A DNA stretch of 64,000 bases from Patescibacteria group bacterium (GTDB lineage Bacteria > Patescibacteriota > Patescibacteriia > Magasanikbacterales > GWA2-37-8). Made by a program: the position numbers and the translations under genes. Positions 3,252 through 45,268 of this stretch are shown one piece after another; within the stretch, counting starts at the first letter, position 1; each line of letters starts with the position of its first letter. A model generated the notes under the pieces. That model saw only the letters and a program-made list of their open reading frames with translations, searched no databases and was not told where the DNA came from. The stretch covers positions 22,684-86,683 of the forward strand of contig SCQK01000004.1 of assembly GCA_004321885.1 (NCBI GenBank), written 5' to 3'.

Positions 3252-3276
3252 ATTCCCCCGACTAAGTCGGGGGAAT
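3252..3276. repeat. Family-B hairpin ATTCCCCCGACTAAGTCGGGGGAAT overlapping the rplS ribosome-binding site (RBS) and first ATG
   Basis: A 10-bp perfect stem. The 3' arm GGGGGAA is the only SD-like sequence for rplS. Confidence 0.7.
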
Positions 3277-3619
3277 GACAATTATGACCGAAACAACCAC
3301 AAAAGCGGCAGTCTACAAGCCCGGCATGACCGTGAAGGTGCACCAAAAAATCAGGGAATTAAACGTTAAAGGCGAGGAAAAAGAACGCATTCAGATTTTT
3401 GAAGGCATGATTATCGCGGCCAAGCACGGCAATGAGCCGGGCGCCACCATTACGGTGCGCAAGGTTTCAGGCGGCGTGGGCGTGGAAAAAATTTTCCCGA
3501 TTCATTCGCCCATCATAGAGAAAATAGAGGTGGAGCGCGAATACGCGGTGCGGCGCGCCAAACTCCACTATCTGCGCGACCCGAAATTTAAGAGGCGGCT
3601 GAAAGAGAAAACGAAGTAA
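3275..3619 (+). CDS. rplS: 50S ribosomal protein L19
   Basis: [65 protein letters not shown] matches the L19 family. An alternative start lies at 3284. Confidence 0.85.
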
Positions 3620-3628
3620 ATAAAAAAA

Positions 3629-3705
3629 CTGGCTCCATACTCTGTGTGGAGCCAGTTTGCAATACGGCTCCACAGCCCCGACTAAGTCGGGGACTATGGA
3701 GCCAG
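3629..3705. mobile_element. MITE-like family-B element with two stacked hairpins, in reverse orientation relative to the copies at 13683
   Basis: CTGGCTCCATACTCTGTGTGGAGCCAG + TTTGCAATAC + GGCTCCACAGCCCCGACTAAGTCGGGGACTATGGAGCC. It is the reverse complement of the 13683..13769 unit except for the central loop base. Confidence 0.7.
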
Positions 3706-3733
3706 CTACTGACCAGCGATTGGGAGCGGGATT

Positions 3734-6658
3734 TTATCCTTTTAAGTACTTCCCGGTCCAGCTTTTTTTGCTCTTCATAATATCACGCGGAGCGCCCGCG
3801 GCCACAATCTCTCCGCCCTTGTCCCCGCCCTCTGGCCCCATGTCTATCACCCAATCGGCTGAACGTATCACGTCCAGATTGTGCTCTATCACCAGCACGG
3901 TGTTGCCTTTGGCCACCAATCTGTTCAACACTTCCAACAAATGTTTTATATCTTCAAAATGCAAGCCAGTGGTGGGTTCGTCCAAAATATATAATGAATG
4001 TCCGGACGCGCTGCGCGACAGCTCGGCGGACAGCTTTATTCTCTGGGCTTCGCCGCCCGAAACCGTGGTGGCCGGCTGGCCCAGCTGAACATAGCCCAAA
4101 CCGATTTCGCGCAACACGCCCAACTTGCCGGCGATGGGCGGAACGTCGTTAAAAAAAGCAAAGGCCTCGTCTACGGTCATACGCAAGACATCGGCGATAT
4201 TCTTGTTGCGGTAATGTATCTCCAGGGCCTCGCGATTATAGCGGTCTCCGCCGCACTCATTGCACTGCATGTACACGTCGGCCAAAAATTGCATGGGGAT
4301 GCGCACATAGCCCTCACCGGCGCAGGCCTCGCAACGGCCCCCGCCCTTCACGTTAAAACTGAACTTGCCGGCGTCGTAGCCGTTCATTTTGGCTTCGGGC
4401 AAACCGGCGAACAAATCGCGAATCAAAGTAAACAGCCCCGTGTACGTAGCCGGATTACTGCGCGGGGTGCGGCCGATGGGCGACTGGTCCACGGTAATTA
4501 CTTTGTCAATATTTTCAATGCCTTTAATTTTTTTGTGCTCGCCCGGCAAATCTTTGGCCCGATAAAAATGGCGGGCCAGCTGTCTGCCCAAAATATCCAC
4601 GATGAGCGAAGACTTGCCCGAACCAGACACGCCGGTCACGCACACGAATTTGCCCAAGGGGATGTCGGCGTCCACATTTTTCAAATTAAAGGCCCTGGCG
4701 CCGAGGATAGAAATTTTTTTGTTGGATTTTTGCAGACGCGCCCCCATTTTTATGGGCAGGACGCCCCGGCCGACTAGATACTTTCCCGTAACCGATTTTT
4801 TATTTTTTTTTATCTGTTGTAAACTGCCGGCCGCCACGATTTCGCCGCCGGAGAGGCCGGCGCCCGGCCCCATATCAATTAAATAATCCGCGCCGGCCAT
4901 CATAGCGCTGTCGTGCTCCACCACTATTACAGTGTTGCCCAAATCGCGCAAAAATTTCAGGGCGCCGATGAGTTTGGCGTTGTCTTTGGGATGCAGGCCC
5001 ACCGAAGGCTCGTCTAAAATATATATAATGCCGGTAAGGCCCGACGACAGCTGGCCGGCCAAACGCACGCGCGTCACCTCTCCACCCGAGAGCGTGTTCA
5101 TGGCGCGCCCCAGCGACAAGTATCCCAAGCCCACCTCCTGTAAATTTTGCAAGCGCTTGATTGTTTCTTTGATGATGGTTTCACCGTGCTGGGCAAAAAC
5201 TTTGCCTCCCATCCCCCATTTGTCCCCCCCTCTGGCAGAGGAAGAAAGCTTTTCCAAAACCGACACGGCTTGCCCGGCCGACAGCTCGGAAATATCCGCG
5301 ATGCTGTACTGGCCCAGCTTCACGGCCAATGACTCCACGCGCAAACGTTTGCCATGGCACAGGGAACACACCTGCTCGCGCATGTACTGTTCTATTTCAC
5401 CGCGCACATAATCAGAATCGGTCTCCAAATGCCGCTGGGTCAGATTGGTAATCACCCCGGAAAAAACGGTTTTCTTTCCGTCTATTTCGTATGTCTCGTT
5501 GTCGCCGTACAAAATCAGCTTCATCTGCGCATCGGAAAGTTCTGCTACTGGCGCATTCAGAGAAAAATCATGTTTCTGCGCGACCGCGGCCAGAATTTTT
5601 TGGTACCACGTTTGATTGCCGGTAATGCGGGTCCAGGGCTGGATAGCGCCCTCGGCCAAAGTAAGCCGCTTGTTAGGCGCCACCAGCTCCGGGTCAACTT
5701 CCATGGTCACGCCCAAACCAGTACAACGCGGGCAGGCGCCATAAGGGCTGTTAAAACTAAAACTGCGCATGTCAATCGCCGGCATTACTTTGCCGCATTT
5801 AGCGCACAGCCCTTCGGTGGAAAACAACACTTCCCTCCCCCTTTTTAAGGGGAAGGCGGGGTGGGGGTAAGACGCCGCAATCACACTGCCGTTGCTCAAA
5901 TCCAAGGCCGTCTCCACCATTTTGGCGATGTTGGGCTGTTTCTTGGCATTCTGGGTGGAAATATTTCCCACCACCAGTTCCACGTTGTATTTTTTATTGG
6001 GCAAAAAACCAAAACGCGCGAATTCGTTTAGTTTCATCAGCTCGCCGTTTACCCGCACCGTGTCAAAACCCGACTTTTCCACTTTGTCCAGCAATGCGGC
6101 ATGACTGGGTTCCCCTCCCCCTTTTAGAGCTTGTCCCGAACTTGTTTCGGGAGGGAGGACAGAGGAGGGGGTATTTGGCGAGGATGGGGTCAATGGAGAC
6201 AACACCCACACCTCGGAACTATTCCGCGTCATCTTTCTCACTTCCTCGGTAATCTGGCCGGGCGTAAACGACATCACTGGCACGCCGCAACCGGGGCAGT
6301 ATTGCGCGCCCACGCGCGCGAAGAGCAAACGCAAATAATCGTAAATCTCGGTGATAGTGCCCACGGTGGAACGCGGATTCTGCGAAGAACTTTTCTGGCC
6401 GATGGCGATGGTGGGAGAAAGCCCCTCCACGCTGTCCACGTCCGGCTTGTCGCGCACGTCCATAAACTGGCGCGCGAAAGAAGACAGCGACTCGGCGTAG
6501 CGGCGCTGGCCCTCGGCGTAAATTGTGTCAAAGGCGAGCGAGGATTTTCCCGAACCGGACAAGCCGGTAATCACTACCAGCTTGTTCTTGGGAATTTCCA
6601 CGTTTATATTCTTCAAGTTGTGTACTCTCGCCCCTTTGATGATTATTTTATCAGCCAT
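3734..6658 (-). CDS. uvrA: Excinuclease ABC subunit A (UvrA) with two in-frame family-A repeat insertions
   Basis: 974 aa. Two ABC ATPase modules with Walker [11 protein letters not shown] and [10 protein letters not shown], signature LSGGE twice, and zinc-finger cysteines. Collinear with E. coli UvrA apart from the short inserts. Confidence 0.95.
5832..5868. repeat. Family-A GC-rich palindromic element, in frame in uvrA (encodes ..[15 protein letters not shown]..)
   Basis: CCCTCCCCCTTTTTAAGGGGAAGGCGGGGTGGGGGTA. The uvrA reading frame is uninterrupted. Confidence 0.8.
6112..6173. repeat. Family-A element split by a small internal palindrome, in frame in uvrA (encodes ..[31 protein letters not shown]..)
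   Basis: CCCCTCCCCCTTTT..[AGAGCTTGTCCCGAACTTGTTTCGGGAGGGAGGACAG]..AGGAGGGGGTA. Confidence 0.75.
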
Positions 6659-6942
6659 ATAATTGCTATCAAGCCATTATATGCACAAAATACGCCCGTG
6701 TCAACTTCTGCGCCGACAGCCCCATTATATTTCCCAAACCTTAATTATCGGGTAGGAAGCAATTAAATTTTTTCCACATCAAAACACGCGATTTGTAATT
6801 CAAAAAATCCCGTCTTTTCATTATTGAGATTGAAGATATTTATCTCGCTCCATCATTTTCCTTCTTTGCGCCTCAAAACCGATTAACGCTGACAGTAAGT
6901 TATCTATGACCACGCTACAAGTAACGATAATCTCGCCGTATT

Positions 6943-44678: not shown

Positions 44679-44942
44679 ATGTTCGAGGTCGATTTGAATG
44701 GCTGGGCGCAAAAGCTAGTGGAGGGCGCGGCCAAGAGCGAATACTCGTGCAATCTGCGGTTCATTGTCCACGGTGGCCCGCTCAAGTTACACCAGTACAC
44801 GCTTCCCGATGGCCGCATGTTCTACGAGTACGTGCAAGGAGAGAAAGTGGTCGAGGCAGGCACCGTGGTCTTCCTGGCGCTCTATGGCAGCGACGGGAAG
44901 GTCGTGCATGAGTCGTTGTGGTCCGAACGTGCCATACAGTGA
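44679..44942 (+). CDS. Hypothetical 87-aa protein in a self-contained plus-strand transcription unit inserted between adk and secY; GC-richer than its surroundings
   Basis: MFEVDLNGWAQKLVEGAAKSEYSCNLRFIVHGGPLKLHQYTLPDGRMFYEYVQGEKVVEAGTVVFLALYGSDGKVVHESLWSERAIQ. Canonical SD, own promoter and terminator. No recognizable domain. Confidence 0.5.
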   Translation: MFEVDLNGWAQKLVEGAAKSEYSCNLRFIVHGGPLKLHQYTLPDGRMFYEYVQGEKVVEAGTVVFLALYGSDGKVVHESLWSERAIQ

Positions 44943-44974
44943 AGCAAATGACCACGCCCGACACCCTCGTAACA

Positions 44975-45018
44975 GCCCCGCGCAGAACACCACTGCTGCT
45001 CGGGGCGCTTTATTTTTT
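44975..45018 (+). terminator. Rho-independent terminator of the small gene
   Basis: GCCCCGCGCAG-loop-CTGCTCGGGGC followed by GCTTTATTTTTT. Confidence 0.5.
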
Positions 45019-45104
45019 AATGAAAATTATTTATTTAGCAAAATTGGTATATCTTCGTAAAAACAAAAAATCCAAACATTTAAAGAGCGGGAAAGAAAGC
45101 TGTT

Positions 45105-45142
45105 ATAACAAAACGGCTCCACAGCCCCGACTGAGTCGGGGA
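45105..45142. repeat. Family-B hairpin (GGCTCCACAGCCCCGACTGAGTCGGGGACTATGGAGCC)
   Basis: Half of the MITE-like unit (hairpin 1 only). Confidence 0.7.
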
Positions 45143-45253
45143 CTATGGAGCCAACGATTTAACAGGTGTGGCTTTTCCGCGCGCGAAAAGTGCCGCGTGC
45201 GCAACGAATTTTTGAATTTACGAGCGCGGATGGATGTGTTCGCAACGCCTTAT

Positions 45254-45268
45254 CCCGACTCAGTCGGG
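45254..45268. repeat. Short family-B hairpin CCCGACTCAGTCGGG embedded in a larger inverted repeat (GGATGTGTTC..GAACACATCC, 45228..45312)
   Basis: Nested stem-loops that also include GAGGCCTC and CTTTTCCGCGCGCGAAAAG palindromes. Confidence 0.6.

Follow-up and report, generated by a model that had tools for sequence, protein, structure and literature searches.

A modular family of short palindromic hairpins in a Magasanikbacteria-like genome and other Patescibacteria

REPs are short palindromic stem-loop repeats that form species-specific families and lie mostly downstream of ORFs; they are found singly, in pairs, or as mosaics, and some are intragenic (PMC3733652). Their hallmark is a GTAG or CGTC tag that stays unpaired, on one side of the repeat (PMC3733652). 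The palindromes that we describe here, from Patescibacteria, resemble REPs, REPINs, and BIMEs in that they are stem-loops that tend to follow ORFs closely, in the gaps between genes that are convergent or co-directional. However, the Patescibacteria core is a perfect palindrome of 15-17 nt (25 nt with the extension at 3252-3276), while REPs are imperfect, have 20-40 nt, and come in high copy number. The core also lacks the GTAG/CGTC tag: its flanks vary between copies, and GTAG was seen only once, beside the copy at 3629. No RAYT (Y1/HUH transposase) was found, either by Pfam among the 34 ORFs of the window or with approximate TnpA queries. Unlike REPs, the Patescibacteria palindromes also lie inside the genes for RNase P RNA, rRNA, and tmRNA. 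Finally, the two-hairpin composite described below contains one core and one core-less hairpin, instead of the two inverted REPs of a REPIN.

Rickettsia palindromic elements (RPE) were reportedly described by Ogata et al. in 2000 as lying in frame in protein genes without destroying them. RPEs are about 100-150 bp long and form Rickettsia-specific sequence families. They are also present in non-coding regions, and within proteins they add an extra peptide in a tolerant region. Similarly, the Patescibacteria palindromes are in frame in intact genes for a GT4 glycosyltransferase and for TsaD (at locus L018). They differ from RPEs in that the inserts are ~48-135 nt, the modules are smaller, and the phylum is different.

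The GC clusters or hairpin elements of mitochondria (in yeast, Allomyces, and sponges) are small GC-rich hairpins that compact genomes carry mainly between genes; they are also known from variable rRNA regions and, less often, from protein genes (PMC2800124). They are kept in transcripts, are patchy among close relatives, and include double-hairpin forms (PMC2800124). The Patescibacteria palindromes share the location in rRNA, the patchiness, and the double-hairpin form, but those elements belong to organelle genomes and have unrelated sequences, while here the module is on a free bacterial chromosome and is common to several lineages of Patescibacteria.

Correia/NEMIS, RUP, and BOX-like MITEs are non-coding, have 50-200 nt and terminal inverted repeats, and are often co-transcribed with their neighbors. 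The composite is also non-coding, has inverted-repeat ends, and folds into a long RNA hairpin. Unlike these MITEs, it has neither a target-site duplication nor a cognate IS that we could find, its copy number is so far very low, and it is modular, being built around a hairpin that also exists alone. We found no description of this palindrome family in the searchable literature.

The core palindrome and the composite element

A reading of the sequence alone had reported that the hairpin CCCCGAC-TNA-GTCGGGG recurs in the window (the whole 64-kb stretch of DNA that was analyzed). We found exact sites at 3256, 3676, 13696, 13789, 15507, and 45125, where none were expected (100 shuffles). A 6-bp stem (CCCGAC-NNN-GTCGGG) adds the sites at 15378, 15691, and 45254. 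This makes 9 true copies in 64 kb, or about 1 per 7 kb, versus 0.12 expected; there is also one variant with a longer stem. In an unbiased census that covered every perfect 6-bp hairpin of the window, CCCGAC ranked first of 129 distinct stems. The recurrence of the hairpin is thus confirmed, and the earlier coordinates were accurate to within a few bases.

All nine loops are T-N-A. Positions 1 and 3 keep their complementarity (T..A) and the center is free, which is a DNA-type dyad. Because the half-sites, taken singly, are not enriched, the whole palindrome is the unit. It can be bare, at the tip of a longer locus-specific stem, or nested in the apical loop of another palindromic module. Besides the hairpins in the RNase P RNA gene, which are listed further on, the window contains:

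3252-3276, no strand assigned: extended core hairpin ATTCCCCCGAC-TAA-GTCGGGGGAAT with an 11-bp stem (-19.9 kcal/mol, z -4.9)
3629-3705, minus strand (inverted): full composite (about -58 kcal/mol, z -7.3/-7.5)
13683-13759, plus strand: full composite (-54 kcal/mol, z -7.4)
13776-13852, plus strand: second composite copy, from a 93-nt tandem duplication
18853-18987, plus strand: in-frame palindromic insert in the GT4 glycosyltransferase ORF at 18336-19529 (-87 kcal/mol, z -8.1)
45109-45158, minus strand: decayed half composite, 88% alike, with the first hairpin kept and the second lost
45252-45270, no strand assigned: ATCCCGAC-TCA-GTCGGGAT, a bare core hairpin within the secY-adk spacer

The core and the composite are genuine dispersed repeats in this genome, which belongs to a Magasanikbacteria-like member of the Patescibacteria (CPR). 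The composite corresponds to a previously proposed two-hairpin unit of ~80 bp. It is 77 nt long, and the window holds it three times in full, once as a decayed half, and once as a variant; the inverted copy, the half, and the variant were all found where they had been placed. The copies are 88-100% alike with conserved ends. The terminal inverted repeats, CTGGCTCCATA...TATGGAGCCAG, have 11 nt and extend to 14 nt via (TCG)/(CGA) in 3-4 copies. Besides the core, the composite is made from another module, the GGCTCCA/TGGAGCC arms. Only the first hairpin has the core, and the second combines the same arms with a plain 9-nt loop. In other words, inverting the second hairpin and placing the core between CAG and A(C/G)TA of its loop gives the first hairpin. 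The variant at 18904 has a different core at the same insertion point. Folded as two hairpins or as a three-way junction, the composite has nearly the same energy.

We found composites at four loci in the window and at one in another genome (L098), at an unrelated locus with the same boundaries. The family is therefore not confined to the window, and its boundaries are conserved, both of which the sequence-only reading had staked its claim on. Boundaries are conserved in four of the six aligned copies.

Some of the intergenic copies follow stop codons or lie between convergent genes. Two convergent genes, rplS with its stop at 3619 and uvrA with its stop at 3734, flank the composite at 3629-3705. 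A T7 run comes after the second hairpin of this composite on the minus strand, and judging from the sequence, this combination would be terminator-like for uvrA. The composite at 13683 begins 7 nt past the stop codon of RNase J, between the convergent genes for RNase J and a lactate/malate dehydrogenase. The tandem arrangement of this copy and the one at 13776 had been noted before. Both copies are real, but they are not two insertions: one segment of 93 nt was duplicated (13669-13761 and 13762-13854, 95% identical), and the duplication also copied the flanking GGTRTARAAAATCG and takes in the stop-codon region of RNase J. The hairpins of these two composites do not have the build of an intrinsic terminator, in which a U tract comes after a GC-rich hairpin.

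The extended hairpin at 3252-3276 is instead within the 5' leader of rplS, after a promoter-like site (3201-3229) and before the start codon (3284). Its 3' flank, GGAATGACA, is a module that is common to elements in other Patescibacteria. The half copy at 45109-45158, which has TGA as its core loop (on the plus strand) and retains ATCG at its left boundary, shares the 920-nt secY-adk spacer with the bare hairpin at 45252-45270. The spacer of this half copy resembles the L098 subtype.

Copies inside the RNase P RNA gene and protein genes

Four of the ten core-type hairpins in the window are within one RNA gene:

15267-15725, minus strand: the gene itself, for an RNase P RNA of the bacterial A type (RF00010 covariance model)
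15691-15705, in this gene: core hairpin capping P3
15507-15523, in this gene: core hairpin capping the tip of P12
15378-15392, in this gene: core hairpin capping the reduced P15-17 arm
15299-15317, in this gene: related hairpin CCCCGACG-TTA-CGTCGGGG, a GUAA/UAA-loop variant, in a helix near the 3' end

The RNase P RNA scores 131.8 bits, versus Rfam's gathering threshold of 100, and aligns to model positions 1-367, which is the full model. The gene is bounded by a promoter-like site (positions 15759-15731) and, at its other end, a terminator (15268-15244). The copies in P3, P12, and P15 sit at the apex of their helices, in place of tips that are different in relatives. The sequence-only reading had listed 3252, 15299, 15378, 15507, 15691, and 45254 as bare hairpins. 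All of these are the core except for 15299, which is a related but different hairpin, and the four in this gene are helix caps rather than MITE fragments.

In relatives, the same stems of RNase P RNA have loops of 3-6 nt. At the syntenic locus L117, three CCCGAC stems, all with variant loops, are found at several helices of the RNase P RNA. Because L117 uses this stem and lacks dispersed copies, the CCCGAC stem may predate the dispersed family in structured RNAs. In contrast, the helices of the L118 RNase P RNA are capped by UUCG and GNRA hairpins. In P3 of L115, a compensatory pair change gives GCCGAC...GUCGGC, which fits constraint on the structure and not on the sequence.

In protein genes, the palindromes can be in frame. 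The insert in the GT4 glycosyltransferase has two parts: a hairpin at ~18853-18888, GTCATCCCGAC-CCGCCACAGGGCGG-GGAGGGAT, and the composite variant at 18904-18987. The variant lacks the CCCGAC core; its hairpins have alternative cores, CCCC-CCACA-GGGG and CCCGCC-TTT-GGCGGG. The ORF stays open despite the insert. The linker has 50 amino acids, or ~25 extra residues, as compared to 25-26 amino acids in the L115 and L117 orthologs (58% identical). In L018, an in-frame copy adds 16 residues to TsaD, relative to the solved structure of the Thermotoga protein (PDB 6n9a_D). Further in-frame intragenic copies are in Wzy_C and GT1 genes.

Distribution in Patescibacteria and in syntenic relatives

Loci from Patescibacteria have 9-10 secondary, non-ascertained hairpins per 100 kb, versus 1.0 per 100 kb in loci from outside the CPR, which is an enrichment of ~9-fold. 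Some genomes have many core loci, such as JACPGS01 (at least 12) and MFQY01 (at least 9); these genome-scan counts are lower bounds. Many independent studies have yielded MAGs with the same features. Across other Patescibacteria, a single core of 15-17 nt is found inside many different, species-specific outer palindromes, and it caps helices of 23S rRNA, 16S rRNA, RNase P RNA, tmRNA, and a group I intron. In many of the copies in other genomes, a U tract follows the hairpin, as in terminators. The UUA loop (in the RNA sense) accounts for 20 of 21 copies in RNA genes, which suggests some selection at the RNA level, versus 23:17 for copies adjoining protein genes, where both orientations are about equally common.

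Among syntenic relatives, whose RNase J is 85% identical, the distribution of the core is patchy. The orthologous position in the gmk-rplS spacer of L115, L117, and L118 has no core hairpin, and the relatives also lack copies at the rplS-uvrA and RNase J 3' sites. At the rplS-uvrA spot they have their own, unrelated hairpins. With the same gene order as the window, L115 and L118 contain no core copies in 43.6 kb, and L117 contains no dispersed copies in 21.8 kb. The comparison of occupied and empty sites that had been proposed thus yields relatives without copies at orthologous intergenic sites, but no clean empty site; these nearest relatives are too distant for comparison at the level of bases. 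At L057, L109, and L094, helices differ site by site in whether the motif is present.

How the palindromes might spread and persist

We propose that these palindromes are a modular, proliferating, probably selfish family, similar to REPs or RPEs, that persists wherever a stable stem-loop is tolerated; we give this reading a probability of roughly 0.6. The family would multiply at the DNA level inside lineages, with a copying step that could rely on a hairpin-recognizing enzyme acting in trans, of the HUH/RAYT type or another, or on hairpin-centered template switching. Copies would survive only where a stable stem-loop is harmless or useful. Such sites might include positions just after stop codons or between convergent genes (as terminators or as hairpins that protect 3' ends), 5' leaders, tips of variable helices in structured RNAs (in this genome, those of RNase P RNA, and in relatives, those of rRNA, tmRNA, and introns), and, in frame, the surface linkers of proteins. 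We infer that the copies act as terminators or stabilizers. A core module inside an RNA gene would be transcribed, would form an ordinary helix cap, and would then drift under structural constraint.

The genomes of Patescibacteria are tiny, and their rRNAs and RNase P RNAs are unusually reduced. If our proposal is correct, then a repeat that writes one hairpin into the helix tips of these RNAs, into terminators, and into proteins would be a concrete mutational force that shapes them. A mobilizing enzyme, if there is one, would be a compact hairpin-specific DNA tool. If there is only drift and reuse, then the family is an ordinary REP-like one whose host is new. The family would also be a practical nuisance, with assembly breaks and misaligned variable regions.

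A bolder version, which we consider speculative and unlikely, is that the palindrome is a self-propagating micro-module that specifically targets the apical loops of hairpins, via a hypothetical enzyme of Patescibacteria, and that over time it has re-capped and remodeled helices that were shortened in the rRNA, RNase P RNA, tmRNA, and introns of the whole radiation. It would then be among the smallest self-propagating modules known. Alternatively, under this version, it might double as the docking hairpin of a lineage-specific RNA-binding protein that is common to these RNPs.

The family had been interpreted as MITE-like. In the classical form of this explanation, the 77-nt composite is an internally deleted derivative of an IS, moved by a transposase that is encoded elsewhere, and the bare hairpins are its fragments. 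The composite does form a real non-coding family with inverted-repeat ends, small and dispersed in two genomes, and the earlier statement that no transposase is present agrees with the lack of Pfam transposase matches among the 34 ORFs of the window. The rest of the interpretation fits poorly. A search of copy boundaries for target-site duplications had been suggested, and in the flanks of the six aligned copies we saw none, nor any shared direct repeat; at most, CG is present on both sides of some composites, which is indistinguishable from an extension of the inverted repeats. The tandem pair arose by segmental duplication. We found no parent insertion sequence among the window's ORFs or in ~1 Mb of other loci (a weak test): tblastn with approximate IS608/IS200 TnpA queries gave nothing below E = 0.27 in 1.06 Mb of fetched loci. 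A 19-mer that spans the arm and the core is absent from JGI metagenomes. And the bare hairpins, which cap RNase P helices and are also nested inside unrelated outer palindromes of other species, do not behave like fragments of a single MITE. We view a classical MITE as improbable, and modular palindromes like REPs/REPINs, RPEs, or mitochondrial hairpin elements as the better frame.

It is somewhat more doubtful that CCCGAC-UUA-GUCGGG is a functional RNA motif, that is, a recognition hairpin for an RNA-binding protein of Patescibacteria or a tertiary contact that was selected independently in rRNA, RNase P RNA, tmRNA, and mRNAs. (K-turns and L7Ae in archaea are an analogy.) The presence of the hairpin in five classes of structured RNA, the 20:1 sense bias for UUA, and the CCCGAC stems of L117 are consistent with this idea. 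But the motif is not conserved at orthologous helices (as in L118, L057, L109, and L094), the compensatory change in P3 of L115 fits structural constraint, the orientations are nearly equal beside protein genes, and there are in-frame copies inside proteins. Also, a triloop would not need its positions 1 and 3 to be complementary, and this symmetry is of the DNA type.

We see little chance that the palindrome is a site for a protein that binds double-stranded DNA, such as an uptake signal, a nucleoid or partition site, or a restriction-modification recognition site, which accumulated where it was tolerated. The perfect dyad with a free central base would suit such a site, as would the accumulation in terminators, variable RNA helices, and other permissive places, which is where the uptake sequences of Neisseria and Haemophilus accumulate. 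However, half-sites alone are not enriched, the density is low, the core is absent from L115 and L118 despite the same gene order, and a fixed dimer site would disallow the 3-6-nt loops in the RNase P stems of relatives.

Least probable, and very unlikely, is chance or artefact, meaning that unrelated, generic hairpins rich in GC share a sequence by coincidence or that metagenome misassembly created the repeats: an independent Logan contig from the same sample (L001) does end at 13707, within the core of the 13683 composite, and the same 17-mer is found singly in many non-CPR genomes, but this explanation is contradicted by the excess of identical stems in the window, the ~9-fold excess of secondary hits in Patescibacteria, flanking arms that are shared over 77 nt, the independent MAGs, and an above-threshold RNase P RNA with the hairpins at helix positions. 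The single copies in non-CPR genomes, which suggest occasional chance reuse of the 17-mer, are terminators or RNA helix caps; examples are P3 in the RNase P RNA of a Melioribacter, a 23S rRNA from a member of the Bacteroidales, and a leader that resembles a cobalamin riboswitch.

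Core hairpins and composite elements

Exact copies of the palindrome CCCCGAC-TNA-GTCGGGG start at 3256, 3676, 13696, 13789, 15507, and 45125 of the window, and none are expected in shuffled sequence. A 6-bp-stem form adds 15378, 15691, and 45254, which gives nine true copies in these 64 kb versus 0.12 expected. A census of all perfect 6-bp hairpins of the window gave 129 stems. CCCGAC recurred most often, and each of its nine copies has a T-N-A loop. Loop positions 1 and 3 stay complementary while the central base varies, so each copy is a perfect DNA dyad. Half-sites of the core alone occur at background frequency. 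The irregular spacing rules out a CRISPR array or tandem repeat; the sole tandem is a 93-nt pair. The sequence-only reading described both the core hairpin and a larger unit accurately. Its list of bare hairpins holds for 3252, 15378, 15507, 15691, and 45254, while the entry at 15299 (15299-15317) is a longer relative, CCCCGACG-TTA-CGTCGGGG.

Main features of the window
3252-3276: hairpin with an 11-bp stem; it is part of the rplS leader and follows a promoter-like TTGACA-17-TAGAAT (3201-3229)
3629-3705: full composite element, inverted
13683-13759: full composite element
13776-13852: full composite element
15267-15725, minus strand: RNase P RNA gene (RF00010, 131.8 bits versus a threshold of 100, full model) with its own promoter-like site and terminator
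18904-18987: core-less variant of the composite
near 45109-45158: half copy of the composite

The composite is a 77-nt element with two hairpins. Hairpin 1 is GGCTCCATAG-T-core-CTGTGGAGCC, and hairpin 2 is CTGGCTCCA-CACAGAGTA-TGGAGCCAG. Arm modules are GGCTCCA, GTCATTCC, and GTCATTGCGAG. Because the ends, CTGGCTCCATA and TATGGAGCCAG, are also able to pair, the two-hairpin fold and a three-way junction are about equal in energy: the prediction is -54 to -58 kcal/mol, with z about -7 to -10. Hairpin 1 minus its core is hairpin 2, inverted, with the core lying between CAG and A(C/G)TA of the loop. In the variant at 18904, the second-position hairpin holds a different core, CCCGCC-TTT-GGCGGG, at the same insertion point. 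The composite reads as an existing hairpin whose apical loop has received a small hairpin.

The sequence-only reading saw these units as consistent with a non-autonomous MITE. The boundaries ATCG/CTGG...CCAG/CG (slashes mark the ends) recur in most composite copies, and there is indeed no transposase in the window (no such domain among its 34 ORFs, using Pfam). But a classical MITE is a poorer fit. The aligned flanks of the composites show no visible target-site duplication, no parent element was found in the 64 kb of this genome that were read, and the adjacent copies at 13683 and 13776 are a 93-nt segmental duplication in tandem, which includes non-element flank overlapping the stop codon of RNase J. 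In an independent Logan assembly, the sequence of this strain breaks off at 13707, within the core. Assemblies of metagenome-assembled genomes (MAGs) can mishandle repeats.

Other repeats were also seen. A second hairpin family, CCCCTT-NNN-AAGGGG (CCTCCCCTT..AAGGGGAGG), has six copies in the census (5838, 11805, 26839, 41224, 42497, and 43722); four copies and two related sites continue with ..GGAGGGGTA. This is probably the other family of the sequence-only reading. Also, a palindromic element with ends GTCATTGCGAG...CTCGCAATGAC (20728-20799) spans the junction between a GT4 gene (19639-20766) and a DUF4012 gene (20770-23214). Its end module also builds mosaics of ~190 nt in the Patescibacteria genome MFQY01 (L059, 1237-1422, 2000-2250, and 4509-4718).

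Copies in spacers, RNA genes, and protein genes

The window is a housekeeping region: it encodes gmk, rplS, uvrA, RNase J, ldh, a sugar-transferase/GT4 cluster, and secY-adk-map with ribosomal proteins. The rplS and uvrA genes converge, and the composite at 3629-3705 occupies the space between them; on the minus strand, its hairpin 2 is followed by T7. The composite pair (13683-13852) starts 7 nt past the stop codon of RNase J and faces the convergent ldh. We rejected a ribosomal-protein leader upstream of rplS, as it has no match in Rfam and the hairpin is missing in relatives.

The core-type hairpins at 15299, 15378, 15507, and 15691 all lie inside the RNase P RNA gene. The helices capped are P3 (by 15691), an enlarged P12 at its tip (15507), the single hairpin in place of P15-17 (15378), and a 3' helix (15299). 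The enlarged P12 also contains a GUCCGCC-ACAG-GCGGAC hairpin (15525-15545), which resembles CCCGCC-ACAG-GGCGGG in the GT4 insert (18868-18885); these may be a third small hairpin module.

The copies at 45109-45270 are in an unusual 920-nt spacer between secY and adk (44412-45332). This spacer holds a small opposite-strand ORF (44680-44942) with no match in Pfam and with a putative promoter and Shine-Dalgarno sequence of its own, so the spacer appears to be inserted into the tail of the spc operon. A search for structured RNAs in 44400-45400 gave only a chance-level match (anti-hemB, E = 0.64).

Copies are also found within protein-coding genes. An insert at 18853-18987 lies within a GT4 glycosyltransferase ORF, which stays open; the interdomain linker is 50 residues, versus 25-26 in orthologs (58% identity). 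Elsewhere in Patescibacteria, the core is in frame in TsaD (locus L018), in two Wzy_C genes, and in a GT1 gene. The TsaD from L018 has a 16-residue insertion relative to the solved enzyme from Thermotoga (6n9a_D).

Distribution and turnover

The closest homologs of the window's RNase J are from Magasanikbacteria. A scan for the 17-mer in one genome per species gave at least 113 loci; among the 113 listed, 49 were classed as Patescibacteria. The matches listed include at least 12 loci from JACPGS01 and at least 9 from MFQY01, both Patescibacteria. Secondary CCCGAC hairpins, which do not suffer from ascertainment, occur at 9-10 per 100 kb in the Patescibacteria loci versus 1.0 in the other 64 loci. 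The core caps helices of 23S rRNA (seven in L057, five in L109, and one in L094), 16S rRNA (L012 and L077), RNase P RNA (L038 and L103), tmRNA (L008), and a group I intron (L033). In Patescibacteria, it also makes terminators (A-run/hairpin/T-run), and it is the center of longer species-specific palindromes, such as CCAGTTAGCATCAGGGCGC... in JACPGS01. In MFQY01, it lies in 190-nt mosaics that end in CTGTCATTRCGAG.

Outside of Patescibacteria, the matches listed are single in each genome and are terminators or tips of RNA helices, such as P3 of RNase P RNA in a Melioribacter. This is consistent with a generic hairpin being reused now and then by chance, as so many hairpins exist across 185,000 genomes. 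In Roseimarinus sediminis (Bacteroidota), we saw pairs of CCCCGAC-NNN-GTCGGGG hairpins ~30 nt apart with similar flanks (about 7627-7690 of L073 and 7631-7690 of L093), a hint that this hairpin expanded independently here on a small scale. In three MAGs labelled as uncultured Gammaproteobacteria (L052, L102, and L107; 33-47% GC), the core is flanked by the Patescibacteria outer modules TGTCATTCC and CGCAATGACA. The contigs may carry the wrong label; otherwise, the modules cross phyla.

The only other composite that we found, in L098, is 85% identical; its ends are the same, but its spacer is longer. It starts 5 nt past the stop codon of an unrelated gene. A 19-mer of arm plus core had no match in JGI metagenomes, and the eight metagenomic matches to the second-hairpin pattern were all unrelated chance hairpins. 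There was no sign of a phage vector (three single matches in viral contigs). About 1 Mb of the loci showed no similarity to Y1 transposases in a weak test with approximate query sequences.

Gene order is kept in three syntenic relatives, whose RNase J sequences are 84-85% identical; these are the nearest relatives but are too distant for a base-level comparison of empty sites. The core is absent from their gmk-rplS, rplS-uvrA, and RNase J 3' spacers, and the hairpins that are present there are unrelated to it. Their RNase P RNAs differ at the tips of the same helices: L115 has GCCGAC-UUA-GUCGGC at P3 (a compensatory change) and CCCCGA-CAAGC-UCGGGG at P12, L118 has a UUCG hairpin at P3 and a GCAA hairpin at P12, and L117 has CCCGAC stems with three other loops. 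Similarly, in aligned 23S rRNAs, the module is at homologous helix tips, where we see drift by point mutation, replacement by other hairpins, or absence. The differing tips and the empty spacers imply rapid turnover of the module, with no single site at which it is required.

A proposed proliferating repeat family and its rivals

The family is real: it is enriched in a lineage, has a patchy distribution and nested copies, and extends into RNA genes and ORFs. Its best explanation is a set of small palindromic repeats that is modular and proliferating, with copies that would be kept at sites where a stable stem-loop does no harm or is of use. The core, at 15-17 nt, is probably too short for ordinary homologous recombination. 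Copying could involve template switching centered on hairpins, or a trans-acting enzyme with hairpins as its substrate.

A less likely explanation is that the core is an RNA motif selected for protein binding. Among the copies in RNA genes, 20/21 have UUA as the loop on the RNA strand, which speaks for such a motif; some of these sites are orthologous, so the cases are not all independent. The idea is weakened by the lack of conservation at orthologous sites, by the compensatory change at P3, and by the intragenic copies. As for strand asymmetry in general, the TAA loop is on the plus strand in 7/7 copies, and across loci the central loop base correlates with the GC skew of the locus (by tally). 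But the asymmetry is mostly the UUA preference of RNA genes: in the flanks of protein genes, loop orientation is 23:17 (not significant), and the central base varies among composite copies. The core is also unlikely to be an uptake sequence or another double-stranded DNA site because half-sites are not enriched and close relatives are empty.

The proposed repeat family resembles REP/BIME elements in its position and mosaic build (PMC3733652), but it lacks a GTAG or CGTC tag, and no RAYT was found in the window or in the other loci searched. The composite differs from REPINs in having one core only, and from MITEs in having no target-site duplication. In-frame insertion into genes is shared with the Rickettsia palindromic element. 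The most similar systems are mitochondrial GC clusters and repetitive or double-hairpin elements; mitochondrial hairpin elements enter variable regions of rRNA and are retained in transcripts (PMC2800124). No earlier description of the family turned up when the literature was searched by topic and by sequence string, or in a paper on insertions in CPR rRNA genes.

Other features of the window include a DUF3800-II RNA (RF02961, 67 bits) at 38568-38631, which adjoins a DUF3800 protein gene (38653-39195). The pair lies within a low-GC (38%) island at 38-40 kb, which looks like a foreign insert. There is a gene for tRNA-Ile with a UAU anticodon (1155-1228); bacteria seldom have this tRNA and usually decode AUA with a CAU tRNA that is modified with lysidine. 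CCAAT-rich direct repeats of ~105 nt (8469-8573 and 9306-9410; 70% identical) lie on both sides of a DsbA-like gene (8568-9338), and a partial third copy is at 52060-52099.
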